A stretch of 64,000 nt of DNA from a virus (IMGVR_UViG_3300012983_000048), one strand, 5' to 3'; positions 1,361 to 27,717 are shown, numbered from the stretch's first letter. Numbers and translations are program-made. The notes: generated from the sequence alone by a model not told the origin.

Positions 1361-1363
1361 TTA

Positions 1364-1615: not shown

Positions 1616-1693
1616 TCTCCTACATTATATTTTTATTTATGTTCTTTTGAGTGGTAAATAATTGTATAAATAATTCTATATATGGAGAAATAA
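1616..1693. promoter_or_regulatory. divergent intergenic region with putative promoters (TTGAGT ... TGTATAAAT) between the minus 1615 gene and the plus 1694 gene
   Basis: AT-rich 78-nt gap between divergently oriented starts. A -35/-10-like TTGAGT(1647) and TGnTATAAA(1663-1670) and an RBS GGAGAAATAAATG are visible. Spacing is imperfect. Confidence 0.25.
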
Positions 1694-2053: not shown

Positions 2054-2065
2054 GAGAGATTATAA

Positions 2066-2999: not shown

Positions 3000-3002
3000 C
3001 AT

Positions 3003-4136: not shown

Positions 4137-4139
4137 ATA

Positions 4140-8965: not shown

Positions 8966-9871
8966 ATGGCAGATACAAAAGTTGAATTGACTAATATTAA
9001 TATGATGACAAAAGAAAAATTTGATTCATTGACATCAATTGATGATAGTCAATTGTATGCTGTTGAATTTCCATTTGCAGATGAAGATTTAGTTCATACA
9101 AAATATGATGAAACAATTGGTGGAGCAAAAACATTTTTAAATAATGTTTATAGAAAATCATCAATTAATTCAAATAAAGATACTACACGTTCTGCCAATA
9201 CATATATGGCATTTACTTTTGTTGATAAAAATGGTTCTCCATCTGGATATATTGAAGAAGCATATGTAAATGATGGTAGCAGATACTTTAATATTGTTGT
9301 GAGGAATAGCGAAGATACAGGTGTCGAGGTTCCATTTCGAATTATTACCCCTGTTTATGGTTCTAATTCACCATCATATGTAAATTGTTCAGGAACATGG
9401 AATTTTAGTTCAACAATTCAAGGAACTGCTTATAGAGCATTATGGGGAGACTTGGCAGAATATTATAAATCTGATAACAACTACCCAAAAGGAACACTGG
9501 TTCAATTTGGTGGTGAAAAAGAAATAACAATTGCAACGGAAGAAGTTAATGCAGTAATTACATCAGAACCAGGATTTATATTAAATACACAAGATTCATT
9601 TAATGATGAATCATCACAAGCAATAGCATTGGTTGGTAAAGTTCCAGTAAGAGTTATTGGAAAATGTCATAAGTTTGATAGATTGGTATTATCAAACATT
9701 CCTGGTGTTGCTATATCTTATGATAGCATTGATGAAAATGATGAATCATTGGATATGCATAGAAATACTTATACAGGTATGAATTCAAATATTATAGCAA
9801 GAGCATTAGAAGAAAAAACATCAGATGAGGAAGGACTTATTATCTGTACAGTTAAATTTGACATTATGTAG
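8966..9871 (+). CDS. hypothetical tail-associated protein (N-terminal paralog of ORF 2066)
   Basis: 301 aa with RBS AGAGG. The N-terminal 40 aa align with ORF 2066..2665. Confidence 0.5.
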   Translation: MADTKVELTNINMMTKEKFDSLTSIDDSQLYAVEFPFADEDLVHTKYDETIGGAKTFLNNVYRKSSINSNKDTTRSANTYMAFTFVDKNGSPSGYIEEAYVNDGSRYFNIVVRNSEDTGVEVPFRIITPVYGSNSPSYVNCSGTWNFSSTIQGTAYRALWGDLAEYYKSDNNYPKGTLVQFGGEKEITIATEEVNAVITSEPGFILNTQDSFNDESSQAIALVGKVPVRVIGKCHKFDRLVLSNIPGVAISYDSIDENDESLDMHRNTYTGMNSNIIARALEEKTSDEEGLIICTVKFDIM

Positions 9872-9925: not shown

Positions 9926-10558
9926 GTGAAGACTATTATGGTGGATTTTGATGATACAATTGTATCACTTAGTGAAATGTTTTGTGATAGATGGAATCAA
10001 TGGGTTACATTAAACCATGATGATTATTTAGATACAACCTTAAGATTGAGATTGGAAAATATCACACAATATAATTATACAGATAGTATCTATGAATTTT
10101 ATAAGAAAAAAGACACACTTATGGAATATCAATATATTTCATCTATTGTTGACAAATTTATGGATAAAATCTTCTTTGATACAACATTTTATGATAATTC
10201 TTATCTAGCAAATGATTGTAATAAAATATTTGAATTATTAAGAACTGATTTCAAAGATTATTATAAAGTATTGCATACAAAGAATGCTTCAATGAATATG
10301 ATTATATCTAAATCAAATTTTATTAAAAAATGTCAAGAAGAAAAAATAGTTGATTTTTCAATTTTTGATAAGATATTATTTGAATTGGAAATGAATGACA
10401 ATCCAAAAGATACAAATATGTATGATGTTATTATTGATGATTCACCAAAAAACATTGAGTATTTTTTAAACAATAACAAAGATGGTAAAGTTTATATGCC
10501 ACTAAAACCATTTAATAAACATTTGCATAATAGTGATACAAGGATTATAACACTATGA
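9926..10558 (+). CDS. HAD-superfamily hydrolase, possibly 5'(3')-deoxyribonucleotidase-like
   Basis: GTG start 9 nt after GAGGAG. N-terminal HAD motif I MKTIMVDFDDTIV (DxDxT). First gene of the long plus-strand operon. Confidence 0.45.
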   Translation: MKTIMVDFDDTIVSLSEMFCDRWNQWVTLNHDDYLDTTLRLRLENITQYNYTDSIYEFYKKKDTLMEYQYISSIVDKFMDKIFFDTTFYDNSYLANDCNKIFELLRTDFKDYYKVLHTKNASMNMIISKSNFIKKCQEEKIVDFSIFDKILFELEMNDNPKDTNMYDVIIDDSPKNIEYFLNNNKDGKVYMPLKPFNKHLHNSDTRIITL

Positions 10559-10944
10559 TAAAAGATAATGAAACATTGAACCAAAGAAGAAAATTATCAT
10601 ATATGATAAATGTTTGGGATGATGTTTCATTACCATATACAATTGATTATGATAATATAATAAACAATGTTATTAAATTTTTTGAGACAGAATCTGAATT
10701 AGTATATCCTGCTAAATCATATTTTGTAGCAATTGTTTATGCTAAATGTTTGGAAAAATATTTTAGCATACCATTCTATGAGTCATTAGATTATGAGGAT
10801 TTATTATTTGATGACAAATATTTTGTGAAATATTCTAATAATAATGATGTATATGATAAAATTATTGAAAAAATTGGTGATATATGGCAATATAAATCAA
10901 TAGATAAAACAGTTGAATATTTTAAAAAAGAGTTTTTAATATGA
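10555..10944 (+). CDS. hypothetical protein
   Basis: 129-aa ORF overlapping its neighbours by 4 nt on each side (translational coupling). Confidence 0.45.
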   Translation: MIKDNETLNQRRKLSYMINVWDDVSLPYTIDYDNIINNVIKFFETESELVYPAKSYFVAIVYAKCLEKYFSIPFYESLDYEDLLFDDKYFVKYSNNNDVYDKIIEKIGDIWQYKSIDKTVEYFKKEFLI

Positions 10945-11738
10945 AAACCATATATGCAATACCAACATATAATTGTAATTTAAATTGTCCTCATTGTGAT
11001 ATACACAAAAGAAAAATACAATTTGATGAAGAAAAATTTATGGAAACACTAATTGATATACATGCAGATAGCATTGTCTTATTTGGTGGTGAACCTTTTT
11101 TAAATAAAGATGTCCTTAAAAAATGTATAGAAACAAATAAAATTAACAGCATATCCACAAATTTATTATTATTAGATAATGACATATTTAACTTAATACA
11201 AGAATATAATATATCATTAGCAACATCATGGAATCCAAAGAGATTTACAACAGAACAATACAAACTATGGTTGAATAATTTATCTAAATTTAAAAATACA
11301 AATACACCAATAGATGTGTTAATAACAATGACAAATGATTTGATAACAATGAGTGATGAAAGATTATTAAAAATATTATCTGATATTGATTATTTGGAAT
11401 CTGTTGATGGTATAGTGTTTGAGCATTTATTAGATAATAACCTTGATAATTTATTTCACCAAAGATGTGATGAGTGGTTATGTAAAATACACAATTTATG
11501 GAAATTTAAATTAAAAAATGTTATTGAAGAACGAGTTTTAAATTGGAATAATGATTGTTCAGATATATGGACATTAGAACCAACAGGTGAATTAAGATTT
11601 GGTTGCCCACAATACATAGGAAGAAAGATTGTTGATAAATGTTTAACATGTGAATTGGTTTCAAAATGCAAACCATGTATGTTACAAAAACATTGTAGTT
11701 TTCCAAAGAAATTATATGAGGTATTAGGCAATGGTTAG
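10941..11738 (+). CDS. radical SAM protein with C-terminal Cys cluster (SPASM/twitch-like), singleton type
   Basis: CNLNCPHC (Cx3Cx2C) at aa 12-19. GGEPFL SAM-binding motif. C-terminal CPQY..CLTCELVSKCKPCMLQKHC. Confidence 0.7.
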   Translation: MKTIYAIPTYNCNLNCPHCDIHKRKIQFDEEKFMETLIDIHADSIVLFGGEPFLNKDVLKKCIETNKINSISTNLLLLDNDIFNLIQEYNISLATSWNPKRFTTEQYKLWLNNLSKFKNTNTPIDVLITMTNDLITMSDERLLKILSDIDYLESVDGIVFEHLLDNNLDNLFHQRCDEWLCKIHNLWKFKLKNVIEERVLNWNNDCSDIWTLEPTGELRFGCPQYIGRKIVDKCLTCELVSKCKPCMLQKHCSFPKKLYEVLGNG

Positions 11739-12795
11739 TTCAGCAATTGATTGTGTTTTGTTTGATATGTGTAATTTAAATTGCAAACATTGTTTTCAAC
11801 AACACAATGTATTTAAATTCAATAAGGATAAAATTGATGAGTTTGTTTATCATATAGATAAAACAATTAGTGATGATATTAAAACCAAATCTATATCAAC
11901 TGTTTTATTATCATTGAGAGGTGGGGAGTTATTCCAGGATAGTTTAGGTGATGATGTATTTGGTCTATATAAACAAATGATAGAAAATATAAATTTTTTA
12001 TGCAAGACAAAATATCCATTAATTAATATTAAATATCATTTTATGACTAATGGAATATATAATAATATTGATAGAGTTGTTGATTTTATTCAATCAGTAA
12101 ATGGTGTCATGACATTATCATATGATCCAATTGGAAGATTTAAAACAGATAAACAATTAGAATTGTTTTATAGAAATTATGAAATTCTTAAAGAGAAAAA
12201 ATTGATAAAAAATATAGCAATAACATTGACAAAGGATTCTATTATAGAATATATTAAGAATAAAAATTTATTAAAACAGTTTTATCAGACAGATATTGAT
12301 ATAAATTATTATATACCAACAATGAATGGATTTGATTTACCATCAGATGATGATATATTTGATTTTTATAAATTTTTATTAGATAATGATATATTTAATG
12401 TGTTATATGTACAAAATATTTTAAACAGTTATATATATGGAACTCCAATTGGTCCAATTTGTTTATGTGATAATACTACTATTATATACAATAACAATTC
12501 ATATAGAAGTTGTAATGTTTATATACCAAATTATAAATTGAGTGACTTTTATGATGATACAAATATAAAAGATTTAGATGCTGTTGAATCAATAAAGAAA
12601 CAAGGTTTAAAGAAAAGAAATTGCATAATGTGTGAATATTATAAAAACTGTTCATATTATTGTTGGATGATGTTGTGTTATAGAAAATTTAAAATGTCAG
12701 AATGTCCCCATAAACGTATATATAAATATATTGAAAATAATTCAAAGATAATAGAAAACTTTAAAATATGGAAAAACACAAATGATATTAAATAA
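11731..12795 (+). CDS. radical SAM/SPASM-like protein, sub-family A (member 1 of 4 tandem)
   Basis: CNLNCKHC. LRGGELFQD. Tail RNCIMCEYYKNCSYYCW..ECPHKRI. Overlaps the previous ORF by 8 nt. Confidence 0.7.
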   Translation: MVSSAIDCVLFDMCNLNCKHCFQQHNVFKFNKDKIDEFVYHIDKTISDDIKTKSISTVLLSLRGGELFQDSLGDDVFGLYKQMIENINFLCKTKYPLINIKYHFMTNGIYNNIDRVVDFIQSVNGVMTLSYDPIGRFKTDKQLELFYRNYEILKEKKLIKNIAITLTKDSIIEYIKNKNLLKQFYQTDIDINYYIPTMNGFDLPSDDDIFDFYKFLLDNDIFNVLYVQNILNSYIYGTPIGPICLCDNTTIIYNNNSYRSCNVYIPNYKLSDFYDDTNIKDLDAVESIKKQGLKKRNCIMCEYYKNCSYYCWMMLCYRKFKMSECPHKRIYKYIENNSKIIENFKIWKNTNDIK

Positions 12796-13882
12796 CATTT
12801 ATCATAAAGAGTATGAAACTAATCTTGGAATTGATTGTATATTGTGGGAACAATGTAATAATAATTGTCTTCATTGTTTTCAACAACATTTAAAACAAGA
12901 TATTGATATAAATTTTTTAAAGACTCTTCCACCAATATTATTAAAAGATATTGATGATGAAATTATAAAAAGAAAAGTATCAAATATAAAATTATCATTG
13001 AGGGGTGGGGAGTTATTCCAGGATAGTTTAGGTGATGAATATTTTACAGAATATGAAAATATTATATCTTATATAAGACATAATTTATCTAATAAGTATC
13101 CAAATATAACAGTAAATTTTGATGTTATTTCAAATGGATTGTTTAAAAAAGTAGATAGATTTATTGATTTTGTTAAGAAGACAAATTGTAAAGTGTCATT
13201 ATCATATGATCCATATGGTAGATTATTTACACAAAAACAAAAAGATGTATTTTTAAATGTATATAATATATTAAATGAAAGTGGATATTTACGTGATATA
13301 TCAATTACACTAACAAAACCTTGTATTCAGCATTATATAAATGGAGATAGTGATTTAGAAATGTTTAGAAAGTGTGATGATATTGATATAAATTATTATA
13401 TACCAAATAAAAATTGGAAATTTTTATTACCAAGTGATGATGATTTATATAATTTTTTCAAATGGTTGGTTGATAATAATTATTTTAATGTTGCATATAT
13501 ACAAAATTTAATAAAAAGTATTATAAACAAAGATTACAGACCAAACAGAAGTTGTTCTTGTAATAATAGAATTATACACAACAAAGGCATCAAAACAACT
13601 AAATGTTCTGAATATATGGGTGGTATGGATGCTAAAGATTTTTATGGTGATGCTTTTGAAACAATGACAGAAGATAATTTTAATATTATTTCTGCATCTA
13701 TTGGTGTTAAAAAAAGAGGTTGCCAAATGTGTAAATATTATGATAAATGTCAAATGTGTTGTTGGTCCTCATTTAATTTTAAACATTATGAAGTTGGGGA
13801 ATGTCCCCATAAAAGAATTACCGAATATATAATAAACAATCAACAAATTATAGAAAGATTTAGGAATACTATTAATGACTGA
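12782..13882 (+). CDS. radical SAM/SPASM-like protein, sub-family A (2 of 4)
   Basis: CNNNCLHC. LRGGELFQD. GCQMCKYYDKCQMCCW..ECPHKRI. Shares a 43/44-nt near-identical tract with ORF 11731. Confidence 0.7.
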   Translation: MILNNIYHKEYETNLGIDCILWEQCNNNCLHCFQQHLKQDIDINFLKTLPPILLKDIDDEIIKRKVSNIKLSLRGGELFQDSLGDEYFTEYENIISYIRHNLSNKYPNITVNFDVISNGLFKKVDRFIDFVKKTNCKVSLSYDPYGRLFTQKQKDVFLNVYNILNESGYLRDISITLTKPCIQHYINGDSDLEMFRKCDDIDINYYIPNKNWKFLLPSDDDLYNFFKWLVDNNYFNVAYIQNLIKSIINKDYRPNRSCSCNNRIIHNKGIKTTKCSEYMGGMDAKDFYGDAFETMTEDNFNIISASIGVKKRGCQMCKYYDKCQMCCWSSFNFKHYEVGECPHKRITEYIINNQQIIERFRNTIND

Positions 13883-15020
13883 ACTTTTAACTTATCCAAA
13901 TTGGTCATATAAAACACCATTTATACCATTTTATAAAGATCCAACCCTTTATGAAATATCTTGTCTTTTATTTGAAAGATGTAATTTAAAATGTAAGTTT
14001 TGTTTTGAAGGTCATAGAAACAATAAAATAGATGTTGATTATATAAGAAAAATACCAAATCTAATAATTGATAACTTCAAAGAAGAATATAAGAAATATA
14101 ACAATATCAAAGAAGTTAATATAATGCTTTGGGGTGGAGAGTTATTTTTTGATGCATTACCTGACTCATTATTTGATGAATATAAGTTGTTGGTAGATAA
14201 TTTTAGAGAGTTATTTAGTGAATCATTTCCAAATATAAAAATTAGATTTTCATGGTTATCAAATGGGGTTTTTACTAAATGGGAAAGAGTGAAAGATATA
14301 ATTGAATATTCTAATGGTATAATTAATTTCTCATATGATCCAATTGATAGGTTTGGTTCATATAAACAAAAGGAATTAATGCTAGAAAATTCTAAAAGAT
14401 TTTATGAATTTGGTTTGAGTGAAGTTGTGTCTATAACACTAACAAAACAAAATATTAATGAATTCATATCAAACACAACAGATATAAACACCATGATGTC
14501 AACCATTGATGTTAATTTTTATATACCAAATAAAAATTGGGAAGAACTAATGCCAACAGATGATGATATATTTAATTTCTTTAAATGGGCATTAGATAAT
14601 AGATTGTTTCATATTAAAGTTATAGAGAAATTAATTTGGTATTATACAACCGAATATATTCAAAGACACTGTGATTGTAAAAGTTGTTCTCAATTAACAT
14701 ATGGTGAATGGAGTGTTGATTGTGCTAAACGAAGTTCTGAACTCCCAACAGAAATGTTTTTTGGTGAATATGCTAATATAATAAATGAAGAAAATAGTAA
14801 TGATATTAAGGTGTCATTGGGTATTAAAAAAAGAGGTTGCCAACTGTGTAAATATTATGATAGATGCCAAATGCCTTGTTGGATAAGTATGGTATTTAGT
14901 GAATATAAAACAACAAGATGCCCATATGAGAAAGCATATGAATATATTGAAATTAATAAAGATATATTATATGATTATATGAATTGGTGTGGTAAGGAAA
15001 TAAAATGTTTAGTAAAATAA
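13875..15020 (+). CDS. radical SAM/SPASM-like protein, sub-family A (3 of 4)
   Basis: CNLKCKFC. LWGGELFFD. GCQLCKYYDRCQMPCW..RCPYEKA. Carries 104-nt and 50-nt tracts identical to ORF 15005. Confidence 0.7.
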   Translation: MTELLTYPNWSYKTPFIPFYKDPTLYEISCLLFERCNLKCKFCFEGHRNNKIDVDYIRKIPNLIIDNFKEEYKKYNNIKEVNIMLWGGELFFDALPDSLFDEYKLLVDNFRELFSESFPNIKIRFSWLSNGVFTKWERVKDIIEYSNGIINFSYDPIDRFGSYKQKELMLENSKRFYEFGLSEVVSITLTKQNINEFISNTTDINTMMSTIDVNFYIPNKNWEELMPTDDDIFNFFKWALDNRLFHIKVIEKLIWYYTTEYIQRHCDCKSCSQLTYGEWSVDCAKRSSELPTEMFFGEYANIINEENSNDIKVSLGIKKRGCQLCKYYDRCQMPCWISMVFSEYKTTRCPYEKAYEYIEINKDILYDYMNWCGKEIKCLVK

Positions 15021-16120
15021 ATTTAGCAAAACAAGATAAAATACATAATGATAATAAGTTTGGTATTGATTGCCTTTTATTTGAAAGGTGTAATTTAAAA
15101 TGTAAGTTTTGTTTAGAAGAACATTCAAATAATAATATTGATTATGATTATATAAGAAAAATACCATATGATATTGTTGATAGAATGAAGGAAGAAATAA
15201 AAACACATAAAGATATCAAAGAAGTTAATATTAGATTATGGGGTGGAGAATTATTTTTTGATGCATTGCCTGACACATTATTTGATGAATATAAGTTGCT
15301 GGTGGATAACTTTAGAAAGTTATTTAGAAAAGATTTGAATGATGTTAATGTAACATTTTCTTGGATTTCTAATGGTGTTTTTACTAAATGGGAAAGAGTG
15401 AAAGATATAATTGAATATTCTAATGGGTTTATAGGATTTAGTTATGATCCAATTGATAGATATTCATCAGACACACAAAAAGAAATGTTTTTTAAAACAG
15501 TAGAATATTTTTATAATAATGACTTATTAAGTGATATATCAATCACATTGACAAAGAGAACAATTAATTGTTATATTAGTGGTAATAGTGATATTGAAAA
15601 GTTAAGAAAATATAAAAAGTTTGATGTTAATTTTTATATACCAAATAAAAATTGGGAAGAACTAATGCCAACAGATGATGATATATTTAATTTCTTTAAA
15701 TGGGCATTAGATAATAGATTGTTTGGTATATATGATATAGAAAAACTTGTTATGACATCAATGAATACTTCAAAAACAATTGGTAGAACCTGTAATTGTG
15801 ATAAACATTTATCACATTGTAAAAATTGTGTAACATATAATTGTGTTAAAAGTTCAACAATATTTGGAAATGATATGTTTTATGCTAATGAAACACAAAA
15901 CATTACAGAAGATTCTGTTTCAAATATTAAAGCATCATTGGGTATATTAAAAAGAGGTTGTTTAACTTGTAAATATTATGGTTCATGCTCAATGCCTTGT
16001 TGGACATCTATATTGTTTAAACATTATAAAATATCAGAATGTCCATATAAGAAAGCACATGATTATATAACAAACAACAAACACATAATAGAGAAATATA
16101 ATGAATACAAAAAATCTTAA
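15005..16120 (+). CDS. radical SAM/SPASM-like protein, sub-family A (4 of 4)
   Basis: CNLKCKFC. LWGGELFFD. GCLTCKYYGSCSMPCW..ECPYKKA. Confidence 0.7.
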   Translation: MFSKINLAKQDKIHNDNKFGIDCLLFERCNLKCKFCLEEHSNNNIDYDYIRKIPYDIVDRMKEEIKTHKDIKEVNIRLWGGELFFDALPDTLFDEYKLLVDNFRKLFRKDLNDVNVTFSWISNGVFTKWERVKDIIEYSNGFIGFSYDPIDRYSSDTQKEMFFKTVEYFYNNDLLSDISITLTKRTINCYISGNSDIEKLRKYKKFDVNFYIPNKNWEELMPTDDDIFNFFKWALDNRLFGIYDIEKLVMTSMNTSKTIGRTCNCDKHLSHCKNCVTYNCVKSSTIFGNDMFYANETQNITEDSVSNIKASLGILKRGCLTCKYYGSCSMPCWTSILFKHYKISECPYKKAHDYITNNKHIIEKYNEYKKS

Positions 16121-16985
16121 TTTATCTATTATACCATTATATCATTGTAATATGAATTGTGATTATTGTTATTTGGGTAATATGAAAAATGATAAAACCA
16201 TATTATCATTAAAAACACTTGATGAAAAAATTGCTGAATTATTACACAATGGTTATGATTTTTCACATATTTCAATATATGGTGGTGAAATAAGTTTATT
16301 AGATAAAAAATATCTTGATAATCTAATATATTTAATTAGAAAATGGGAAATAAATGTAACAACAAATTTGACAAATGATTGGATTATAGATTATTGTAAA
16401 AATAATAATATTCATATAAATGTATCATTAAATGAGGAAAGAAGCAATTATGAATATGTTTTAAAAAAAATAAAAAACATTGATTGTTCAATAACATCTG
16501 TTGTTCTTCCATCATTATTAGAAAAAGATATTAATAGTGTGTTAGAATTTTATAATTTGCTTGGTAAAAACGTTTATTTTTTGGAGTATAACCCGTCAAT
16601 ATATTGTAATAAGTATGATATATCAACAAAAGATTTTATTATATTTTTAAAGAATATTATAAATGAATATAATAAGGGTGACTATTGTTTTGATATAGAA
16701 AATATGAAATATTTAAATGATGATGAATACAATCCAACACAAAGTGGGTTTGTATTTATATTGCCAAATGGAAATTATGGGACAGTTGAATATAAAGATT
16801 CAATAGAACATTTAGTTGAGTTTGAATCAATCAATGAGTGGGAAAAGTATATTGTTAAAGAAAGAAAAGATTATTTAAAAAATTGTTGTTTATGTGAATT
16901 TTTTGATAAGTGTAAAGCAGAGCATTTAAAAACATTTTCAAAACCTTATTGCTCTGGTTTATATGATATTATTAAAAATAAATAA
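16101..16985 (+). CDS. radical SAM protein with short Cys tail
   Basis: CNMNCDYC at aa 16-23. IYGGEISLL. C-terminal CCLCEFFDKCKAEH..YCSG. Confidence 0.65.
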   Translation: MNTKNLNLSIIPLYHCNMNCDYCYLGNMKNDKTILSLKTLDEKIAELLHNGYDFSHISIYGGEISLLDKKYLDNLIYLIRKWEINVTTNLTNDWIIDYCKNNNIHINVSLNEERSNYEYVLKKIKNIDCSITSVVLPSLLEKDINSVLEFYNLLGKNVYFLEYNPSIYCNKYDISTKDFIIFLKNIINEYNKGDYCFDIENMKYLNDDEYNPTQSGFVFILPNGNYGTVEYKDSIEHLVEFESINEWEKYIVKERKDYLKNCCLCEFFDKCKAEHLKTFSKPYCSGLYDIIKNK

Positions 16986-17012
16986 TTGTATAATTTATTA
17001 TAAGGATTAAAG

Positions 17013-17732
17013 ATGGGTGTAACACAAAATCAAAAAATACAAAAAGTTACAGCAAATAATATAGTTGGTGCAATAACTGATTTTAATACAAATGTATTAA
17101 CAAAAGCATATAATCAAGCAACATACCATAGTGGTAATGTTCCAAAATTTTCTGGAACAGCAAATATTGGTTCAAATAATGTTGGGAGTGTTGGTTTTAC
17201 TAATCCAGCAGCATTACCATCAAATCAAATGTTGTCCAAAAGTGTTCCATCTTTAACATTATCTGATACTACTATATCTGCATCATCACTTTGGTCTCAG
17301 ATGTTAACAATGACACGAGCATTAAATAAGATTAGAAAATTTACATCAACATGGTATCATAGACAATTTACAACAGTAAACGATGATGCAAACTCATCTG
17401 ATCCAAATGGTGGTTCATTAATTAATAAAGGTTCAGTTTCAGGGACATGTGTTATAAATGCATCTTTCCCGGCAGTTCCAACAGCATCAAATGCATTAGG
17501 TGGTTCATCAACTTCTTGGGAAAGGAGTGGTACAACCTCAATAACATTGAATCCAAGTAGTGCCCTAACAACAAATGCCCAAATAACAGCTGGAAATATG
17601 AACACAACAATTACAAATTGTTATAATACATGGTATAATACTTGTATATCTGCAAACACATTGACATACAATTTATATACATGCCATTTAAATTGTCATG
17701 GTAATTGTTATGGAACAAGATCAAGGAGATAA
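17013..17732 (+). CDS. Ser/Thr/Asn-rich protein with Cys-rich C-terminal tail, a candidate radical-SAM substrate
   Basis: 239 aa with RBS AAGGA. Low-complexity S/T/N-rich body. The last 40 aa are ITNCYNTWYNTCISANTLTYNLYTCHLNCHGNCYGTRSRR (5 Cys). No enzymatic motif. Sits in the middle of the radical-SAM array. Confidence 0.5.
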   Translation: MGVTQNQKIQKVTANNIVGAITDFNTNVLTKAYNQATYHSGNVPKFSGTANIGSNNVGSVGFTNPAALPSNQMLSKSVPSLTLSDTTISASSLWSQMLTMTRALNKIRKFTSTWYHRQFTTVNDDANSSDPNGGSLINKGSVSGTCVINASFPAVPTASNALGGSSTSWERSGTTSITLNPSSALTTNAQITAGNMNTTITNCYNTWYNTCISANTLTYNLYTCHLNCHGNCYGTRSRR

Positions 17733-18460
17733 TGATGTTAAATAGTGGATTACCATATAGTGATGAAATATTAAACAAACCAATGGATGAACATTTAATT
17801 GTTGATATGTCTGATATTAAGTTTGATGGCATATTAATGTCTCAATATGCAAATATATCTATAATTTATTTAAGAAATACAGATTTAAAAAATATAAAAC
17901 TTGATTTTACAAAATCAGATTATGATTTTAAGTGTGATATGTTAAAGCAATATTTAATTGGTGATATTGAATATCAAATTGTTGAATTAGATGATACTTG
18001 GTTAAAAATCTTGGGAATGTATTATAATACATCATATAATACAAATGATTGTATATTGACAGATGATGAAATGAAGAAATTTATAGAAGATAATGAAAAA
18101 TTAATTATAGATGTTTTAACATTTTGTTTTTCATTACCATTATATCCATTATCAAGGTTAGATATGGTTGAAGAAGATAAATTTACTTTTGATGATGTAA
18201 CACATATTTGTGGTAAACCATTTAATAGTAATATTTGTAACTTGATTAAAAATGAGTGTTTTATGTTATTATTTGATAATAATGATATATCTATTAAACC
18301 ACATTTTTATGATGATATATTTACAGAATCAAACAATAAATTATTTGAATGTGTATCTAAATATACACCATTTACAGCATTATTATATGGGATGAGTAGT
18401 GGTGATGGATGGAAAGAATTTAGTAAAGGTTTAGCAGAATATGTTGATGGGGTAAATTAA
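17732..18460 (+). CDS. hypothetical protein
   Basis: The ORF track starts at 17705, but AGGAG at 17724-17728 followed by ATGATG at 17732 is the likelier start, overlapping the upstream stop as TAATG. Confidence 0.45.
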   Translation: MMLNSGLPYSDEILNKPMDEHLIVDMSDIKFDGILMSQYANISIIYLRNTDLKNIKLDFTKSDYDFKCDMLKQYLIGDIEYQIVELDDTWLKILGMYYNTSYNTNDCILTDDEMKKFIEDNEKLIIDVLTFCFSLPLYPLSRLDMVEEDKFTFDDVTHICGKPFNSNICNLIKNECFMLLFDNNDISIKPHFYDDIFTESNNKLFECVSKYTPFTALLYGMSSGDGWKEFSKGLAEYVDGVN

Positions 18461-18461: not shown

Positions 18462-19499
18462 ATGCATAATGCTTTGAGTTTGGATATTTTAAAAGAAGAT
18501 ATCAGATATAATGATGACATTGAATATGATGTTGGTGATGATATATATCAACCAATTGTTGAAAGAGAACGAGGGAATATTGAAGATGAACTTGGTGAAA
18601 ACCCTTCATTGCCTGCATATGATAGGTATATTGTTGAAAAACTTGGTTTATCAGAATATTCACCAAAAATAATTACAGAAGATATACCATTGGAAACAAA
18701 TGATTTATCATATATTACTTCAATATCAACAAATGATTATTATGATTTTAATAATGAAATACTTAAAGATTTTCAAAATATCAAAATCTTTACAGAAGAT
18801 CCAATGGATGAAGAAACCTATAATTTATTAATACACGAAAGATATGATGGTATAAGATATTATGCACAAACAGATACCCTTGTTATTCCTGCACCAATTA
18901 AAAAGCATATAGATGATGGTGAAACTGTAAAAGCAAAAGTAACATTATATAATATGGATATGGCAACAGTAAAACATCAAATATTTAAATATCCATCTGA
19001 ACAATATATAAAACCAAAGGTTGAATTCCAATATTTACCAAAAACAGTAAAATGGAGTAAATTAACAGAAGAAAAGTTTGGTGAATTTACATATAAAGAT
19101 AATCCAAATTTTACAACTACATATTTATATAAAAATATGCCACGAGAATATTTAAAACAAATGGTTTATGAAACCGAGGTTTTAACATATGATTTGACTG
19201 ACAAAGCATATTATTGTCATGCAAATGCAAATTTTACAAAAGCAAGTCTGTTGGTTAAAGATTGTGTTGAGAATGGATTAAAGAGAGTTATACAGTTGAA
19301 ATTAACACCAGATGGTGTTTTGAGACCATACTATTCTAATAAAAGAATATTATCGGCATTATATACAAATGTTCCTACAATACCCGTTTGTATTATGATG
19401 AATACAACATATTTGGGAACATATGATTTATATTACAATCCACCAGTGAATAAAGATTTAATTAATAAATTAGTAAACCCACACATAACAATTTTATAA
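18462..19499 (+). CDS. hypothetical protein
   Basis: 345-aa ORF starting 2 nt after the previous stop. No motif recognised. Confidence 0.45.
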   Translation: MHNALSLDILKEDIRYNDDIEYDVGDDIYQPIVERERGNIEDELGENPSLPAYDRYIVEKLGLSEYSPKIITEDIPLETNDLSYITSISTNDYYDFNNEILKDFQNIKIFTEDPMDEETYNLLIHERYDGIRYYAQTDTLVIPAPIKKHIDDGETVKAKVTLYNMDMATVKHQIFKYPSEQYIKPKVEFQYLPKTVKWSKLTEEKFGEFTYKDNPNFTTTYLYKNMPREYLKQMVYETEVLTYDLTDKAYYCHANANFTKASLLVKDCVENGLKRVIQLKLTPDGVLRPYYSNKRILSALYTNVPTIPVCIMMNTTYLGTYDLYYNPPVNKDLINKLVNPHITIL

Positions 19500-19503: not shown

Positions 19504-20403
19504 ATGAGCATCATTGATAGAATTAAAATAGCATCAACAAGTATTGATTTATCTTGTAGTAATTTACCAACAGCAGTAAAATTGGAATTATCTGGTGTTT
19601 GCAATCATAAATGTTATTATTGTGTTGTTCCAACATTAAAAGGTTTGAAGAAGTTTATGCCTATTGATGTGGTTAATAAAACAATTGAAGAAATTAGAAG
19701 ATTAAATATAAAAGAAATTGGTTTATTTCATATGGGTGAGGGAACTTTACATCCACAATTTTGTGAAATAATTGATATAATACTTAATGGTTGTAATTCA
19801 AAGTTGTTTATAACAACTAATGGAACAAGAATAGATGAATTAAAATATTTGGTAAAAAATAACATACAATCAATTAAATTTTCATTAAATGGGTATAATA
19901 AAGAAACACACTTAAAAGCAACAGGTGTTGATACATTTGATAAAATAATAGAAAATATAAAATTGCTTATTAAATATAGAAATGATATAATATCATCAAC
20001 AGAAATATCTGCATCATCAATCTTCTACAATAATACAGAACAAGATGATTTTGTTGATAAAATGTCAAAAATTGTTGATAATTATTATTTTACTGAGATA
20101 TATTCTCATGCTGATAAAGTTATAAACAAATACATAGATTTAACAAATAATCCAAGAATTATTAATGGATTGTGTGGAAATATACCATGCTATGGTATGT
20201 ATAATTTATGTCATATAAAGACAAATGGTGATGTAAATTTGTGTAGGTGGGGAGTGGATGATGAGTTTGTTATTGGTAATATTATGGAAACTCCATTGGA
20301 TGAACTATGGTTTTCTGAAAAAGCAATGAATTTGAGAAATGAATCACTTGCAGGTAAATTAAAAACATGTAACATTTGCACGGGTATAAAAAATGGAATA
20401 TAA
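19504..20403 (+). CDS. radical SAM/SPASM-like protein
   Basis: CNHKCYYC. HMGEGTLHP. C-terminal CGNIPCYG..CHIKTNGDVNLCRWG..CNICTG. Confidence 0.65.
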   Translation: MSIIDRIKIASTSIDLSCSNLPTAVKLELSGVCNHKCYYCVVPTLKGLKKFMPIDVVNKTIEEIRRLNIKEIGLFHMGEGTLHPQFCEIIDIILNGCNSKLFITTNGTRIDELKYLVKNNIQSIKFSLNGYNKETHLKATGVDTFDKIIENIKLLIKYRNDIISSTEISASSIFYNNTEQDDFVDKMSKIVDNYYFTEIYSHADKVINKYIDLTNNPRIINGLCGNIPCYGMYNLCHIKTNGDVNLCRWGVDDEFVIGNIMETPLDELWFSEKAMNLRNESLAGKLKTCNICTGIKNGI

Positions 20404-21379
20404 TATATATCTTAAATTAACTAATGGGTGTCAACTTAAATGTGAGCATTGTTATAATGAAATAATGATGAATCATAATCATATGAAAGAAGATGTTTTG
20501 GAAGATGTATTAATCTGGTTAAAAGAATTTTGCAACAAACACCCAAATGATGATATAAATGTCACATTACATGGTGGAGAACCTACCCTATATGATTTAG
20601 ATAAAATTTTATATATTATTGAATCAGTAAATGAAACAAATATAATGTGGGAAATAACAACAAATCTTGTTTATGAATTGACAGATAAACATATTCAAAT
20701 TTTTAAAAAGATGCATAAATCATTTATAAAAACATCTTGGGATTATAAAATAAGGTTTAATGAAGAACAAGAAGAATTGTGGTTGAATAATGTTAGAAAA
20801 CTCAAATCTATTGGTATAGAAGTTCAACCAATTGTTTGTTTGACAAAACAACTTATAAAAGATTTAAACCCAAATTATATTTTTGATATGTTTTCAAATC
20901 TTGGACTCAAATATTTTAATTTTGAAAGAATTACATCAACTGGTAGAGCAGATGTAAATGATGTGAGACCAAACAATTCTGATTTAGATAAATGGTTATT
21001 AGATGCATTTAAAATATATGAGAATACAAAATTTTATATACCATTATTTAGTGGAGTTAAAGAAGGGATTAAGGGGAATTTGATTGGTTGTAGGAGAAGA
21101 CAATGTATGAGAACTGTTACAACCATAAATCCTAATGGAACAATCTCTAGTTGTCCAAATATGGCAAATATTTCATATGGAACATTAAAAACCATTGATG
21201 AAAACAAGAAAAAAATGCTATATAATTTTGAAGATAATAAAAATATTGGTTGTTTGTGTTGTAAATATTTTAAACAATGTAATGGTGATTGTTGTCAATT
21301 ACAATGGGATAACACAGGTTGTCCAGGAATGTTATCAATATATAAATATTTGGAGTTAAAAAATGGAATTAGTAATTAA
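20393..21379 (+). CDS. radical SAM/SPASM-like protein, sub-family B (paralog of 26026)
   Basis: CQLKCEHC. LHGGEPTLYD. CRRRQCMRTV..SSCPNM..CLCCKYFKQCNGDCCQLQWDNTGCPGM. Confidence 0.7.
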   Translation: MEYNIYLKLTNGCQLKCEHCYNEIMMNHNHMKEDVLEDVLIWLKEFCNKHPNDDINVTLHGGEPTLYDLDKILYIIESVNETNIMWEITTNLVYELTDKHIQIFKKMHKSFIKTSWDYKIRFNEEQEELWLNNVRKLKSIGIEVQPIVCLTKQLIKDLNPNYIFDMFSNLGLKYFNFERITSTGRADVNDVRPNNSDLDKWLLDAFKIYENTKFYIPLFSGVKEGIKGNLIGCRRRQCMRTVTTINPNGTISSCPNMANISYGTLKTIDENKKKMLYNFEDNKNIGCLCCKYFKQCNGDCCQLQWDNTGCPGMLSIYKYLELKNGISN

Positions 21380-22301
21380 ACCAACAAGAGCATGTAATTT
21401 CCATTGTTCATTTTGTTCTTCTAATTTGATTCCAAATAAAGTATTGGAGTCGGATAAGGTTATTAGTTTTTTAAAAGAATTTCCAGAAACAAAAAGTATA
21501 ATTGTTAATGGTGGTGATCCATTAATGATGAAACCACAATTCTATTATGATATTATTGAACACATAAGAAGTGAAAAACTAAATTGTATTATATCTTTTA
21601 CAACAAACTTATGGGATTGGTATATTAACACAGATAAATGGGATGATTTGTTTAGACAACCCGAGATTGGTATATGCACATCTTTTCAATATGGAAATGG
21701 ACGGATAAAACCAAATTATACATTATTTACAGAAGATGATTTTTTAAAAATATTTTATAAATTTGAGGAATTATATAATGAAAAATTGACATTTGTTAGT
21801 GTTGTTACAAATGAAAATGCTGGATATGCAATTGATAATGTTAAATTGGCAAAAAAACTTGGAACAGAATGTAAATTAAATCCTGCCGTTAAATCTGGGA
21901 GACAAGGGTATCACTATCCATTGGATAAAATGTATGATATATACTTACAATTATTTGAAACTGATGACTTATATAAATATGAATCAAATTGTTTAAATTT
22001 AATAAATTTCTTTAATAATAGAGATACAACATGTCCATTATCAAACAGAACATGTTATAAAAATATAAAATGTATGGGTCCAGATGGTAATATGTCAACA
22101 TGTCCATCCCTTGATGATGATTATATATATGATTCATATCAGTATAAAATAATAAAGAATGAATGTTATATGTGTGAGTTTTTTAATATTTGTAATGGAT
22201 GTATGAAAAGAGTTCATGATTTAAAGGATGATACATATGATTGTTATAATTTAAAAAACACATTAATGTGTATAAAAAATATTTGTAATAACATAAAATA
22301 A
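21363..22301 (+). CDS. radical SAM/SPASM-like protein
   Basis: CNFHCSFC at aa 11-18. VNGGDPLMM. CPLSNRTCYKNIKCMGPDGNMSTCPSL..CYMCEFFNICNGCMK. Confidence 0.65.
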   Translation: MELVIKPTRACNFHCSFCSSNLIPNKVLESDKVISFLKEFPETKSIIVNGGDPLMMKPQFYYDIIEHIRSEKLNCIISFTTNLWDWYINTDKWDDLFRQPEIGICTSFQYGNGRIKPNYTLFTEDDFLKIFYKFEELYNEKLTFVSVVTNENAGYAIDNVKLAKKLGTECKLNPAVKSGRQGYHYPLDKMYDIYLQLFETDDLYKYESNCLNLINFFNNRDTTCPLSNRTCYKNIKCMGPDGNMSTCPSLDDDYIYDSYQYKIIKNECYMCEFFNICNGCMKRVHDLKDDTYDCYNLKNTLMCIKNICNNIK

Positions 22302-24161: not shown

Positions 24162-24223
24162 ATAAAGATTAAATATTGTCATTAATATTAAATTATTATA
24201 TAATATCTCAAAAGGAGAAATAT

Positions 24224-25105
24224 ATGGTATGTAAACCTGTTTATGAATTTTTACTTTGGGATAATTGTAATAATAATTGTAAATTTTGTTTTCAAAGAAA
24301 GAATGGAATTATTCTGTCTCCATTGAATAAAATAAAATCTTTAAATTGTGTGTTAGAATTTTTAGATTCTAATGATTATGTAAATGGCAGTCATGTTTTA
24401 TTAGTTGGTGGTGAAATTTTTGATGAATCTAACCTTTTGATTATTAATGATTACGTAAATTTTTTTGAGAAAATTGTTGATAAAATGAACAGCAACAGTA
24501 TTGATTTATTATACATCAATACAAATTTATTGTATAACAATATGGGAATTTTAAATAAATTATTATCTCTTATTGATTATGATAACTTATGGGATAGGTT
24601 AAAATTTACAACATCATATGACTTAGAAGGTAGATTCTCAACAAAAGAAAAAGAAACCTTATTTTTGACAAATCTTAAATATGTAAAAAATACATATCCA
24701 AAATGTAATATAGTAGTCAACACAATATTAACAAAACAAACATGTGAAAAAATTTTAAACAATGTATTTAATCCAAAAGATTTTTGTGATGAATATAATT
24801 GTGATATAAATCTTATACCATATATTGTTTATACAGAAGAATTATCAGCAACAAGAGAACAAATATTTTCAACCTTAATTAAAGTTAATGAATTAATACC
24901 AAATTATTTTAATAGATATGTTGATAATTTTAGTTTAAAACAGGATAAATTATTATACAAGTATGATAATAAAAAACAATCTTTAACATTTGTATCATGT
25001 GATAATATGGAATGTGGTCATTCACAAAATTTTAAATTATATTCTAGTGATAACAGATGTTTTATATGTGATTTAATAGAATTATCTAAATTGTTTGGAG
25101 AATAA
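24224..25105 (+). CDS. radical SAM protein, sub-family C (1 of 4; motif at extreme N-terminus)
   Basis: AAGGAG 6 nt before ATG at 24224. MVCKPVYEFLLWDNCNNNCKFCFQ. LVGGEIFDE. C-terminal CDNMECGHSQN..CFICD. Confidence 0.65.
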   Translation: MVCKPVYEFLLWDNCNNNCKFCFQRKNGIILSPLNKIKSLNCVLEFLDSNDYVNGSHVLLVGGEIFDESNLLIINDYVNFFEKIVDKMNSNSIDLLYINTNLLYNNMGILNKLLSLIDYDNLWDRLKFTTSYDLEGRFSTKEKETLFLTNLKYVKNTYPKCNIVVNTILTKQTCEKILNNVFNPKDFCDEYNCDINLIPYIVYTEELSATREQIFSTLIKVNELIPNYFNRYVDNFSLKQDKLLYKYDNKKQSLTFVSCDNMECGHSQNFKLYSSDNRCFICDLIELSKLFGE

Positions 25106-25106
25106 G

Positions 25107-26024
25107 ATGAATAACTTTATACAATATGAATTATGGAAAGATTGTTCAAATGGTTGTAAATTCTGCTTTAATAAAGGACAAAAAGATTTAGATAAAATTG
25201 AATCATTAAATTTTGTAATTGATAAGTTAGATGATACAGAAGTTAATGAGTATAATGAAATAGGATTTATTGGTGGTGAGTTTTTTGATAGTCAATTGGA
25301 TAATAAGAATGTAAGACAATTGTTTTATAGATTATTTGATAAATGTATTGACAAAATTAAAAATAATAAAATTAATAAATTGTATATAACAACTGCTTTA
25401 TTGTTTGATATGAATAAACATTTGATACCATTTTTAAATTATTTAAATGATAAAGGTGTATTGGAAAATGTTTTACTTTGTACATCATATGATTTGAAAT
25501 ATAGATTTCATACTAGTGATAGAAAACATATGTGGGAATCTAATATGAAATTATTAAATTATGTATTTCCAAAATTAAGATTGCATACAGAAACAATTGT
25601 TTCTGGATTCTTTATTGAGTCAGTATTGAATGGTGAGTTTAGTATAACAGATTTTTGTAAAGAATATAATACACACATTGATTATATTGAACCCGGTTCT
25701 GGATTTTATTATTATGATAAGAAAGAATGTTCAAAAGATATGCCAGATTTCTTTCCTACAAAAGATAGGTTTATAGAATTTTTATACAAAGTTGCAATAG
25801 AAAATAGAGAAATAGATTTAGATACATTTATATCACCTAATGTTAGGTCTGATAAGATATATTGTAATTATAATGGTAAACGATATATAATGTCTAATAG
25901 AAGAAAAACTAATATGACAATATCTTTTACTGATATGGATGTAAAATATGAAACTGGTTTATTGGATTCTAATGATAAGATGTTAGAAATAGTTAAACAA
26001 GTAAAACAAATGTGTGGTGAATAA
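25107..26024 (+). CDS. radical SAM protein, sub-family C (2 of 4)
   Basis: GGAG then ATG at 25107 (the track's TTG at 25095 is less likely). MNNFIQYELWKDCSNGCKFCFNKG. FIGGEFFDS. Confidence 0.6.
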   Translation: MNNFIQYELWKDCSNGCKFCFNKGQKDLDKIESLNFVIDKLDDTEVNEYNEIGFIGGEFFDSQLDNKNVRQLFYRLFDKCIDKIKNNKINKLYITTALLFDMNKHLIPFLNYLNDKGVLENVLLCTSYDLKYRFHTSDRKHMWESNMKLLNYVFPKLRLHTETIVSGFFIESVLNGEFSITDFCKEYNTHIDYIEPGSGFYYYDKKECSKDMPDFFPTKDRFIEFLYKVAIENREIDLDTFISPNVRSDKIYCNYNGKRYIMSNRRKTNMTISFTDMDVKYETGLLDSNDKMLEIVKQVKQMCGE

Positions 26025-26025
26025 A

Positions 26026-27036
26026 ATGGATAAACATATAACTATTGTCTTAACTAATAAATGTAATTTAAAATGCAAACATTGTTTTGCAATCAGAAAT
26101 ACCACATCAATGTCAATGGATATATTGGAAAAAACAATTACATATCTAATTAATGAGGCAAATAACAATCCAAGTAATAGATATTTAATTGAATTTTTTG
26201 GTGGAGAGATTGGTTTATATGACCCAAATATACTATCTATTATGATAGATTACATGAGAGATAATGTTATTAATAATAATGTTGAAATATATGCACAATC
26301 AAATTTAGTATATAATTTAACAGATGAATGGTTAAATTTATTCAAAAAAATGGATTATTTGGATACATCATATGATTATTCTATTAGATTCTCAAATGAA
26401 CAACAAAGAGAATTATGGTTTAATAATGTTAGAAAAATAACATCTAATGGTATAGAATTGTCTTGTGTCATTACTATTACAAAAGATGTGGTAGAAAATT
26501 TAACACCCAGAGCATTATTTGATATAATGTTAGGATTGGGTATTAAAAAAATAGAATTAGAAAGGTTATTCCCACCATTAAAACCAATGGTAGAATATGA
26601 TAATGGTAATATTGTAGCAACAAACAGAGATGTTGATAAATGGATGTTTGATGCTTATCTTTTGTATGAAAAATTAAAGGATGTTGGTGTATATGTTGAA
26701 ACATTTAATTGTATGGAAGAATCAATATGTGGTAATAATTATTATGAGCATAGTAGGTGTTGCCAAGAAAACAATTTAACATTTTTACCAAATGGTGATG
26801 TATCACAATGTTTTGTAACATCAGTTAAACCATTTTTCAATATATTAAACCCAAATAATAAAAATATGGACATATACAATGAAAATGTTTTATTTGAGAA
26901 GAAATTAAATGATGGTTGTAGAGATTGTCCATATTTAAAATATTGTAGGGGTGATTGTTGTATGATGAAATGGGATTCAACTGGTTGTCCTACACCAAAA
27001 TTAATTTATGAATATCTTTTGACCAAGGGAGAATAA
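26026..27036 (+). CDS. radical SAM/SPASM-like protein, sub-family B
   Basis: ATG at 26026 just after the upstream stop. CNLKCKHC. FFGGEIGLYD. CMEESICGNNYYEHSRCCQEN..GCRDCPYLKYCRGDCCMMKWDSTGCPTP. Confidence 0.7.
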   Translation: MDKHITIVLTNKCNLKCKHCFAIRNTTSMSMDILEKTITYLINEANNNPSNRYLIEFFGGEIGLYDPNILSIMIDYMRDNVINNNVEIYAQSNLVYNLTDEWLNLFKKMDYLDTSYDYSIRFSNEQQRELWFNNVRKITSNGIELSCVITITKDVVENLTPRALFDIMLGLGIKKIELERLFPPLKPMVEYDNGNIVATNRDVDKWMFDAYLLYEKLKDVGVYVETFNCMEESICGNNYYEHSRCCQENNLTFLPNGDVSQCFVTSVKPFFNILNPNNKNMDIYNENVLFEKKLNDGCRDCPYLKYCRGDCCMMKWDSTGCPTPKLIYEYLLTKGE

Positions 27037-27716
27037 TGTTTTTTAAAAATTGTCCATTTTGTAATGAAAATGTTGATTATGTATATAATTCAGATGATAA
27101 ATTATATACTATAAAATGCAATGGTTGTTCAAAAAATGGAATAATTGTGTCTATTTCAAATAATGATTTAACAGAATTACAAAATAAATGGAATAAGAGA
27201 GTATTTGATGATGTGTTATTAAATGATACAGAATATAGTATAAAAATGTTATCATTTTTTAATGGAACATTAAAAAACAAAGAAGATATATCAATATTTA
27301 GAACCGATAAGTATCATAAAGAATTTGATTCATTTAATATATCAGAAGATATATTTGGTTATATGGTTATGCCAAATGGAGATGTTATAATTTGTGATGA
27401 TGAACACTCAAAAGAATTATTAAAATATTTGGGTATTGATGATGAGTTAAATACAGATGAAATAATAAGTATTGCAGTATCATGTGGTATAATTAGAATT
27501 TCTAAACAAGCAAAATGTTTAATGTTTGATTTAGTTCCTAATAAAATAAATAAAACCCAAATAACATCATTGATTAAATTTTTGGTGGAAAATAGTGATA
27601 AATTAAATTATATAAAAACATTTTGTGTATATAAAAATGGTGGAACATGTGCTAGAGATATAGAAGTATTAGATACATTAAATGATTTAATATTATATTT
27701 AGATGGGATAAAATGA
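27036..27716 (+). CDS. Cys4 zinc-ribbon protein, hypothetical
   Basis: N-terminus MFFKNCPFCNE..(15 aa)..CNGCSKNG (CxxC-x17-CxxC). Remainder uncharacterised. Embedded between radical-SAM genes. Confidence 0.45.
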   Translation: MFFKNCPFCNENVDYVYNSDDKLYTIKCNGCSKNGIIVSISNNDLTELQNKWNKRVFDDVLLNDTEYSIKMLSFFNGTLKNKEDISIFRTDKYHKEFDSFNISEDIFGYMVMPNGDVIICDDEHSKELLKYLGIDDELNTDEIISIAVSCGIIRISKQAKCLMFDLVPNKINKTQITSLIKFLVENSDKLNYIKTFCVYKNGGTCARDIEVLDTLNDLILYLDGIK

Positions 27717-27717
27717 T

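Follow-up and report, generated by a model that had tools for sequence, protein, structure and literature searches.

Phage proteins with a C-terminal Cys-His repeat as candidate substrates of co-encoded radical-SAM/SPASM enzymes

In the bacterial HXS system, HxsB and HxsC, two enzymes of the radical S-adenosylmethionine (rSAM) class, together with the small protein HxsD, mature HxsA, a protein with basic H-x-S repeats, and a gain of 8 Da occurs on SHRSS (PMC13128918). The His and Ser of the repeat are essential, and the effector is periplasmic, carries a peptidoglycan-binding domain, is processed at its N-terminus and acts in anti-phage defence (PMC13128918). Here we describe a gene at 17013-17732 of a viral DNA of 64,000 nucleotides, IMGVR_UViG_3300012983_000048 (the whole stretch is called the window), which lies among rSAM genes and encodes a protein ending in Cys-His repeats, the CH protein. 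On balance our data lean towards the CH protein being an undescribed, phage-specific virion protein of the baseplate/tail-fibre module, the tail of which would be a substrate of the co-encoded rSAM/SPASM maturases.

HXS (HxsA/HxsB/HxsC) is the closest characterised analogue of the phage CH system. Its rSAM enzymes mature a protein with basic tandem repeats and not a short peptide, and the phage units contain [H/Y]-x-[S/N]. HXS also includes a small non-enzymatic partner, and one rSAM protein of the window, 26014, has HxsB as its second-best NCBIfam match (51 bits). The HXS repeat, however, has a period of three without Cys, whereas the phage repeat has a period of four, an invariant Cys and a C-terminal RxRR. 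HXS is cellular and its effector is exported, whereas the CH protein is phage-encoded and, in a homologue, virion-associated. The CH protein did not match the HxsA model, and no HxsB or HxsC orthologue was found among the rSAM proteins, the best scores being 51 bits (cutoff 370) and 24 bits (cutoff 268), respectively. Judged by these sequence comparisons, the phage CH proteins are not members of the HXS system.

The maturases of ranthipeptides, sactipeptides and SCIFF peptides (PapB, CteB and SkfB types) are also SPASM-domain rSAM enzymes with periodic Cys in their substrates. PapB is the best or near-best full-length NCBIfam match of the rSAM orthogroup called '-1' below, but at 49-56 bits against a cutoff of 340; with the SCIFF TIGR03974 and PapB NF047865 models, the rSAM proteins scored 28-56 bits against cutoffs of 340-425. 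The substrates in these systems are precursors typically under ~100 amino acids (aa), with a leader and a Cys-rich core, which are usually recognised through a recognition element (RRE) for RiPPs (peptides made on the ribosome and then modified post-translationally) and are cleaved or exported. The CH protein, in contrast, has 239 aa and a folded N-terminal domain. An earlier note on this DNA had proposed the protein as a candidate substrate, by analogy with the Cys-rich tails modified by sactisynthase- or SCIFF-type enzymes; a precursor of that type was not borne out, because members of the family are folded proteins of 180-400 aa, a homologue keeps its N-terminal domain in the virion, and the motif includes His/Tyr and Ser/Asn as well as Cys. 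Scores against the CXXX-repeat model TIGR04115 (22-36 bits, cutoff 350) and the Cys-every-fifth CefB model NF038107 (24-27 bits, cutoff 600) were also far below the cutoffs. CXXX-repeat RiPPs are short peptides of many repeats, whereas CH units, two to five per protein, end a large protein.

The rSAM enzymes that modify whole proteins match in architecture. Anaerobic sulfatase maturase (AnSME) and QhpD/QhpC resemble the phage enzymes in length (~300-370 aa), in having CX3CX2C at residues ~11-37 and a C-terminal SPASM domain, in lacking an RRE and in having a protein target, and the phage rSAM proteins align with AnSME over their full length (45-54 bits). The sulfatase motif for AnSME is C-x-P-x-R, and the last CH unit, C-x-x-x-R, has the same Cys-to-Arg spacing. 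The CH protein is, however, neither a sulfatase nor an amine dehydrogenase subunit: it has no sulfatase domain, its +2 residue is G, S or N and not P/A, and three repeat units are accompanied by four enzymes. Three-residue cyclophane (triceptide) systems include FxsA, with 'FXSXX-COOH', and its partner FxsB. They share an aromatic-x-Ser/Asn motif, placed at the extreme C-terminus in Fxs, and the swap of His for Tyr in CH units fits an aromatic donor. The phage enzymes nevertheless gave only weak N-terminal matches to FxsB, YhhB and XyeB (23-46 bits), and each CH unit is preceded by an invariant Cys and belongs to a large candidate substrate.

The CH gene and its C-terminal module

The gene, the signal in front of it and the two conserved parts of its tail are as follows.

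17002..17006, + strand: Shine-Dalgarno-like AAGGA, 6 nt before the ATG of the CH gene, read directly off the sequence
17013..17732, + strand: gene for the CH-tail protein, ATG start, 239 aa and stop (reading of the open reading frame (ORF), homologues and predicted structure)
17619..17645, + strand: subfamily-specific Cys pair C203-x7-C211, in a predicted helix 193-214 (39 of 208 unique tails)
17682..17729, + strand: family-defining C-terminal module C224-H-L-N, C228-H-G-N, C232-Y-G-T, R236-S-R-R-COOH (homologue alignments and tail statistics)

The C-terminus reads ...TNCYNTWYNTCISANTLTYNLYTCHLNCHGNCYGTRSRR (also written ...NCYNTWYNTCISANTLTYNLYTCHLNCHGNCYGTRSRR). The earlier note had correctly reported this ORF and its tail, its richness in Ser, Thr and Asn (T+N+S make up ~40% of residues), the lack of an enzymatic motif (no Pfam or NCBIfam family matched) and its position inside an rSAM array, with rSAM genes on both sides. 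It had also called the protein low-complexity. This is contradicted by the AlphaFold2 model, which predicts an ordered alpha/beta domain over residues ~14-232 (predicted local distance difference test, pLDDT, 80.5; predicted template modelling score, pTM, 0.77), and by the conservation of the N-terminal ~200 aa among homologues. There was no solved structure among the relatives of the model. By inspection, the N-terminus has no hydrophobic stretch and no signal peptide. A c-type cytochrome was considered, as CHxxCH formally contains CX3CH, but was rejected on the lack of a signal peptide and of any cytochrome match in what is a cytoplasmic or virion protein of a phage. ORF 17013 is a genuine and conserved gene of phages, whose product is a folded protein of ~25 kDa.

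A word-indexed search found 21 full-length homologues of 43-98% identity, in all of which C203, C211, C224, H225, C228, R236, R238 and R239 are invariant. C232 alternates with Trp, and about half of these close relatives carry the latter. When 1.8 billion cluster representatives were searched with a profile (E below 1e-3), the family grew to 133 clusters at 50% identity, with the signature (C-[H/Y]-x-[S/N]) x3 and, at the very C-terminus, R-x-R-R. This module occurs once in the window. Distant members often lack C203 and C211, and nearly all end in C-H-x-x-C-H-x-x-C-H...[S/G]-R-x-R-R-COOH. Conservation within the family is highest in the tail, and in the aquatic subgroup no residues are invariant apart from the three C-H pairs and the terminal RR. 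The five-Cys tail of the earlier note therefore stands in part: five of the six Cys of the protein lie within the last 37 residues and the tail is retained in homologues, but C203 and C211 are specific to a subfamily and C232 is often Trp.

The constraints within the repeat were assessed over 208 unique tails, 161 of which have exactly three consecutive period-4 units. The residue after Cys (+1) is His or Tyr in 99% (His 95%, Tyr 4%), and that at +3 is Ser or Asn in 90%. Position +2 is S, G, A, N or T in about 83%, and the remainder is mostly L, D, Y or Q. In 73% of tails the first Arg comes four residues after the last Cys. The gene and its motif are thereby established. Some aquatic cassettes (L104:~1-3000 and L105:~1-3000) carry two tandem CH-tail genes with unlike tails, for example CHTSCHSSCHTSRGRR and CHASCHSSCHTSRGRR.

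The stop codon of the CH gene and the start of the following gene overlap (TAATG), and another ATG lies 3 nt further on (window 17723-17737); the Shine-Dalgarno sequence of the following gene, AAGGAG (17723-17728), is made up of the Arg codons of the RSRR tail. This arrangement implies translational coupling of the CH protein and the product of the next (+1) gene. The idea that RxRR is kept merely as a Shine-Dalgarno sequence for the downstream gene was rejected: all six Arg codons are used (108 AGR, 36 CGN), so the motif is selected at the protein level. A T4-type late promoter, TATAAATA, was rejected as the driver of the CH gene, as none was found upstream of it; the motif is under-represented across the window (13 found, 29 expected). 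An extended -10-like sequence, TGTATAAT, is present at 16988-16995 in the 27-nt gap 5' of the CH gene and may well be due to chance in DNA of 25% GC.

Linkage to radical-SAM/SPASM enzymes in phage cassettes

Scans of IMG/VR gave 86 further loci, and 201 confirmed relatives in one subgroup alone; the CH family comprises over 200 IMG/VR loci. After ORFs were called in the loci and clustered by BLASTP, rSAM proteins of a single cluster (361 in all, 357 of them with CX3CX2C at the N-terminus) were present in all 91 loci and the window. In 82 of 90 loci the gene just upstream of CH encodes an rSAM protein. The +1 gene belongs to cluster c5 or c18, which align together, in 84 loci, and the +2 gene to c6 or c20, for which homology was not demonstrated, in 77. 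The functional tie between CH and rSAM genes is very strong, because all related loci carry homologous rSAM/SPASM genes and 82 of the 90 carry one directly upstream. The obligate genomic linkage is thus established, as is the class of the enzymes. The substrate or scaffold role proposed in the earlier note is supported to this extent, by the linkage in all loci, the conserved tail and the SPASM-type enzymes, but not in the form of a short sactipeptide or SCIFF precursor or of a low-complexity scaffold.

About 15 ORFs of the window, between 10941 and 31994, have an N-terminal CX3CX2C (residues 11-37). The rSAM genes match PF04055 and PF13186, and the TIGR04085 SPASM model scored 29-33 bits (cutoff 27) with window 26014, L075 8934 and ORF067 of Ralstonia phage RSL2. 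The enzymes next to the CH gene thus have both CX3CX2C and a C-terminal SPASM domain, as rSAM/SPASM maturases do. They align over their full length with the SPASM peptide and protein maturases PapB, DynA, AnSME and TIGR04083; none reaches the cutoff of an NCBIfam equivalog model, and none has an N-terminal RRE extension. Orthogroups were set by reciprocal best hits and named by position in aquatic cassettes. Four such orthogroups were found, each with counterparts in the window.

'-1' orthogroup: window 20393 and 26014
'+3' orthogroup: window 11731, 12782, 13875 and 15005 (four paralogues, 11731-16120)
'+6' orthogroup: window 21363
'+7' orthogroup: window 16101

Since all four have window counterparts, the window holds, by orthology, the same four-enzyme core, enlarged by duplication to about 13-15 genes.

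Typical aquatic cassettes show, in this order, a gp8-like baseplate wedge gene, the gene for a giant DUF4815 protein, c10 and the fibre-like c4, followed by the cupin/JmjC gene c7, an rSAM gene, the CH gene, c5 and c6. Further along are more rSAM genes among 2-oxoglutarate (2OG)-Fe(II) oxygenase genes, sometimes a B12-binding rSAM gene, and c8. On contigs with close homologues of the window protein, the rSAM array is followed by the CH gene, a gene of ~240 aa and a gene of ~300-345 aa. The window is from a tailed phage, with tail-fibre genes, NAD ligase and SbcC, and no tRNA genes were found in it. Its tail-fibre genes (3003-8528 and 34121-40815) lie on both sides of the rSAM array, and the CH gene is encoded inside the structural gene module (baseplate/tail-fibre region).

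Among 185,579 species' genomes, only 12 matches were found. The CH family is phage-borne, because all 12 are contigs of metagenome-assembled genomes (MAGs) that carry the same phage cassette. The cassette is present on L103 (USNF01000001.1, 'uncultured Gemella sp. UMGS1894', a contig of 208 kb) and in the Bdellovibrio-like MAGs L095, L099 and L102; such contigs are probably mis-binned jumbo or T4-like phage genomes. Homologues of c8 are abundant on contigs of ~218 kb, which points to a common gut jumbo-phage lineage.

The composition of the cassettes differs between environments; the label 'gut-type' is an inference from sample names only. The nine gut-type cassettes, one of them that of the window, contain a median of 7 rSAM genes (range 5-13) and no cupin or 2OG oxygenase genes, whereas aquatic/soil cassettes (n=80) have medians of 4 rSAM and 3 oxygenase genes, with at least one oxygenase gene in 80 of 80 (range 1-6) and a B12-binding rSAM gene in 34 of 80. 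This difference suggests that, in phages of anaerobes, radical-SAM steps have taken the place of O2-dependent ones.

The other cassette genes of the window are listed here.

8966..9871, + strand: c4, cassette-associated protein (cluster membership; aquatic relatives are tail-fibre-like by PHROG tail-fibre matches of the L075 homologue)
10555..10944, + strand: c8, small universal cassette protein, phrog_20737 (cluster membership; all-alpha model)
10941..16985, + strand: six tandem rSAM genes (10941, 11731, 12782, 13875, 15005 and 16101), upstream of the CH gene
17732..18460, + strand: +1 partner gene, cluster c18, homologous to c5 / phrog_20767 (likely start ATG 17732 or 17735)
18462..19499, + strand: +2 partner gene, cluster c20 (conserved position after the +1 gene)
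19504..20403, + strand: rSAM/SPASM gene outside the main paralogue cluster (domain matches, clustering)
20393..22301, + strand: rSAM/SPASM genes 20393, orthologue of the aquatic rSAM gene directly upstream of CH, and 21363, the '+6' gene
24176..29636, + strand: rSAM paralogues 24176, 25095, 26014 (second '-1' copy, SPASM above cutoff), 27718 and 28659
27036-27716, among the rSAM genes: Lar-like Zn-ribbon ORF, 226 aa (N-terminal PF14354, E 2e-4, below cutoff)

When c8 and c5/c18 were compared with RRE/PqqD-like proteins, no consistent Pfam signal was found; c8 is predicted to be all-alpha, with only sub-threshold winged-helix matches, and its model had no significant structural neighbour.

The 11731-16120 paralogues (354-381 aa) contain near-identical stretches, with, for example, LWGGELFFDALPD, LFDEYKLLVDNFR and NGVFTKWERVKDIIEYSNG identical in 13875 and 15005, and therefore point to recent tandem duplication of one orthogroup. 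Two rSAM genes, at 19504-20403 and within 31179-32868, fall outside the main cluster and weakly match tungsten-cofactor maturase and spiro-SPASM models; downstream of the second lies an ORF (31978-32868) that resembles class I/II aminotransferases. These outlying genes may belong to a separate pathway at the edge of the array. Inside the array, window 22987-23595 (+) encodes a protein of 202 aa (cluster c23) that ends in ...TTITYTC-S11-C-S5-MFIAYMEI. Its gut relatives (L006:1760-2413 (-) and L007:2995-3675 (-)) have up to ~30 consecutive Ser and then a conserved [M/T]FIAYM[D/E]I. This poly-Ser protein was rejected as a paralogue of the CH family (hhalign probability <1%), and is possibly another substrate for the enlarged group of rSAM enzymes.

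Virion association of a homologue and competing explanations

No match among deposited phages was found when 12 kb of the window was compared with INPHARED by megablast, or when the window protein, P0053 and P0115 were searched against it by tblastn. Cultured jumbo phages with CH members and the same cassette were reached only via the +1 partner gene. They are Agrobacterium phage Atu_ph07, with gp170 (tail ...FCHSSCHASCHNSRSRR), and Ralstonia phage RSL2, with ORF068 (tail ...VCHSSCHTSCHGSRGRR). Both proteins are annotated "hypothetical protein" and both genes are directly downstream of an rSAM gene; close copies are present in RSF1, FLC6, FLC8, S13, RsoM3USA and Phosso. Profile comparison by hhalign joined the window subfamily to the aquatic profile (99.8%, E 3e-30), and the aquatic profile to full-length gp170 (99.4%, E 1e-21) and to RSL2 ORF068 (98.9%, E 4e-17). 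In addition, gp170 is the top Foldseek match of the window model in BFVD (E 3e-5). The phages PhiRP12 and PhiRP31 have a different rSAM cluster, with no obvious CH homologue. In the genome papers, cupin, rSAM and 2OG genes are listed merely as accessory genes (PMC8066314, PMC11898562), and the rSAM gene reported in cyanophage S-SCSM2R has a different context, with an aminotransferase and an amidinotransferase.

The earlier note had raised the question of whether the protein is a component of virions. Attai et al. (2018) detected gp170 (31.89 kDa) in Atu_ph07 virions by 8 unique peptides with 35% coverage (PMC6102473, Table S5), although the particles were purified with polyethylene glycol only and some non-structural proteins were also detected. 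The numbering of gp170 was confirmed by computed masses, and the virion proteins of Atu_ph07 cluster in coding sequences 170-215. The rSAM proteins gp171, gp168 and gp165 and the +1 homologue gp169 are not listed in the virion proteome (PMC6102473, Table S5). Across gel bands 1-9, gp170 was most abundant in band 1, the top band, whereas other well-supported proteins of ~30 kDa peak in bands 7-8 or lower and proteins of 117-137 kDa in band 2 (PMC6102473, Table S5); band smearing is common in this gel, and the loading buffer is described without reductant. The three Cys of gp170 are all in the tail. Several peptide combinations fit the reported coverage of 35.16%, so that it is uninformative on the C-terminal peptide. 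Virion association is thus established for a homologue, the window phage itself being uncultured. Neither the loss of the Cys tail in homologues nor the absence from virions, which the earlier note had named as refuting its proposal, was observed.

These data also bear on other explanations of the tail. The Cys and His could form a structural metal site (Zn, Fe or other), which might run along the axis of a fibre or baseplate protein that forms oligomers, while the rSAM enzymes act on another target, be it a glycan, a small molecule or other structural proteins. Metals are typically bound by invariant Cys and His residues, and the phage fibre and spike proteins T4 gp37, gp12 and gp5.4 use His/Cys metal sites. 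The high-mass, possibly SDS-resistant species formed by the virion-associated homologue would fit such a site, as would the presence of fibre-like c4 and giant DUF4815 proteins in the cassette. However, the intervening positions are constrained too (+3 and +2, as given above), and His is exchanged for the aromatic Tyr and not for other ligand residues. Because +1 (His/aromatic) and +3 (Ser/Asn) are constrained besides Cys, recognition by an enzyme fits better than a simple metal site. The small polar residues also disfavour a regular helix with Cys i, i+4 and i+8 on one face, and a metal site leaves unexplained both the obligate adjacency to one rSAM orthogroup at -1 and the invariant terminal RxRR. 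We regard it as unlikely.

The CH protein could otherwise be a classical RiPP precursor, in which an over-long leader, the N-terminal domain of ~200 aa, precedes a C-terminal part of ~16-40 residues that is modified, cleaved off and released as a bioactive peptide. A modified core at the C-terminus together with SPASM maturases would resemble RiPP clusters, and the best NCBIfam matches of the rSAM proteins are RiPP maturases, but the enzymes have no RRE, the N-terminal domain is a conserved fold, and no protease or exporter was found in the cassette. The C-terminal tryptic peptide of gp170 comprises 30 of 296 aa; the 35% coverage exceeds this and cannot be reached from that peptide alone, so the N-terminal domain is retained in the particle. 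A released peptide is therefore highly improbable. An accessory role, as an Fe-S scaffold, carrier or electron donor acting through the Cys/His tail, is to our judgement more improbable still. With 15 rSAM enzymes the need for Fe-S clusters would be high, the tail offers Cys/His ligands, and the CH protein is beside rSAM genes in every locus. Against this, the CH protein showed no resemblance to ferredoxin, flavodoxin, IscU, NifU or A-type carriers, and a ferredoxin-like protein was rejected on that basis; only three Cys, with a period of four, are conserved; the CH gene is located in the structural module; and the homologue is in the virion, from which the rSAM proteins are absent. Each of these three explanations accounts for less than a modified virion protein does, and the CH protein is probably an undescribed structural protein modified by enzymes.

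A possible maturation pathway and its implications

For the window phage, we infer that the tail is the substrate and that its modification has a structural role. Late in infection the CH protein would fold, leaving its tail to protrude after the final beta-strand. Enzymes from at least one of the four conserved rSAM orthogroups would then remove hydrogen atoms and form covalent links within or from the repeat units, with c5/c18 and c8, partners that are not in the virion, perhaps presenting the substrate. Candidate links are Cys thioethers, cyclophane-type links from His/Tyr to C-beta, or both; since His/Tyr and Ser/Asn are conserved as strongly as Cys, the Cys-S-to-C-alpha thioether is only one of several chemistries. 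The modified tail might then stabilise the CH protein in the particle or staple it there. Covalent stabilisation of a particle is known from the chainmail of HK97, the links of which are autocatalytic isopeptides in the capsid, and the CH homologue runs far above its monomer mass in SDS-polyacrylamide gel electrophoresis. Here, in contrast, the target would be a protein from the baseplate/fibre module and the catalysts dedicated radical enzymes, and the covalent link is putative.

Maturation of a protein by rSAM/SPASM enzymes is already known, and what is probably new here is that the protein is a phage virion protein, with putative chemistry. No description of the CH family or its module was found in the searchable literature. 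We tentatively propose, as a possibility that goes further than our data favour at present, that tailed phages of gut, ocean, freshwater and soil share a dedicated rSAM/SPASM pathway that puts covalent radical cross-links (thioether, His/Tyr cyclophane or both) into the C-terminal C-H-x-S repeats of a virion protein associated with the baseplate or fibres, possibly stapling it to other components of the particle, and that anaerobic gut phages swapped the O2-dependent cupin/2OG oxygenases of the pathway for extra rSAM paralogues. If so, this would be the first case of a radical cross-link introduced into a virus particle by enzymes, and a phage-side mirror of the bacterial HXS defence effector.

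Since the papers on Campylobacter and Ralstonia phages, rSAM genes have been unexplained "accessory" genes in jumbo and T4-like phages. They can now be linked to a specific partner, namely a conserved protein of the virion whose C-terminal repeat is invariant, and the cultured carriers RSL2, RSF1, FLC6 and Atu_ph07 are at hand. If the tail is modified, rSAM/SPASM protein maturation would extend to virus particles, and enzymology would gain a new substrate motif as well as a natural comparison of O2-dependent and O2-independent versions of one pathway. It would also suggest a possible mechanistic link to the HXS defence system, acting at DNA entry.
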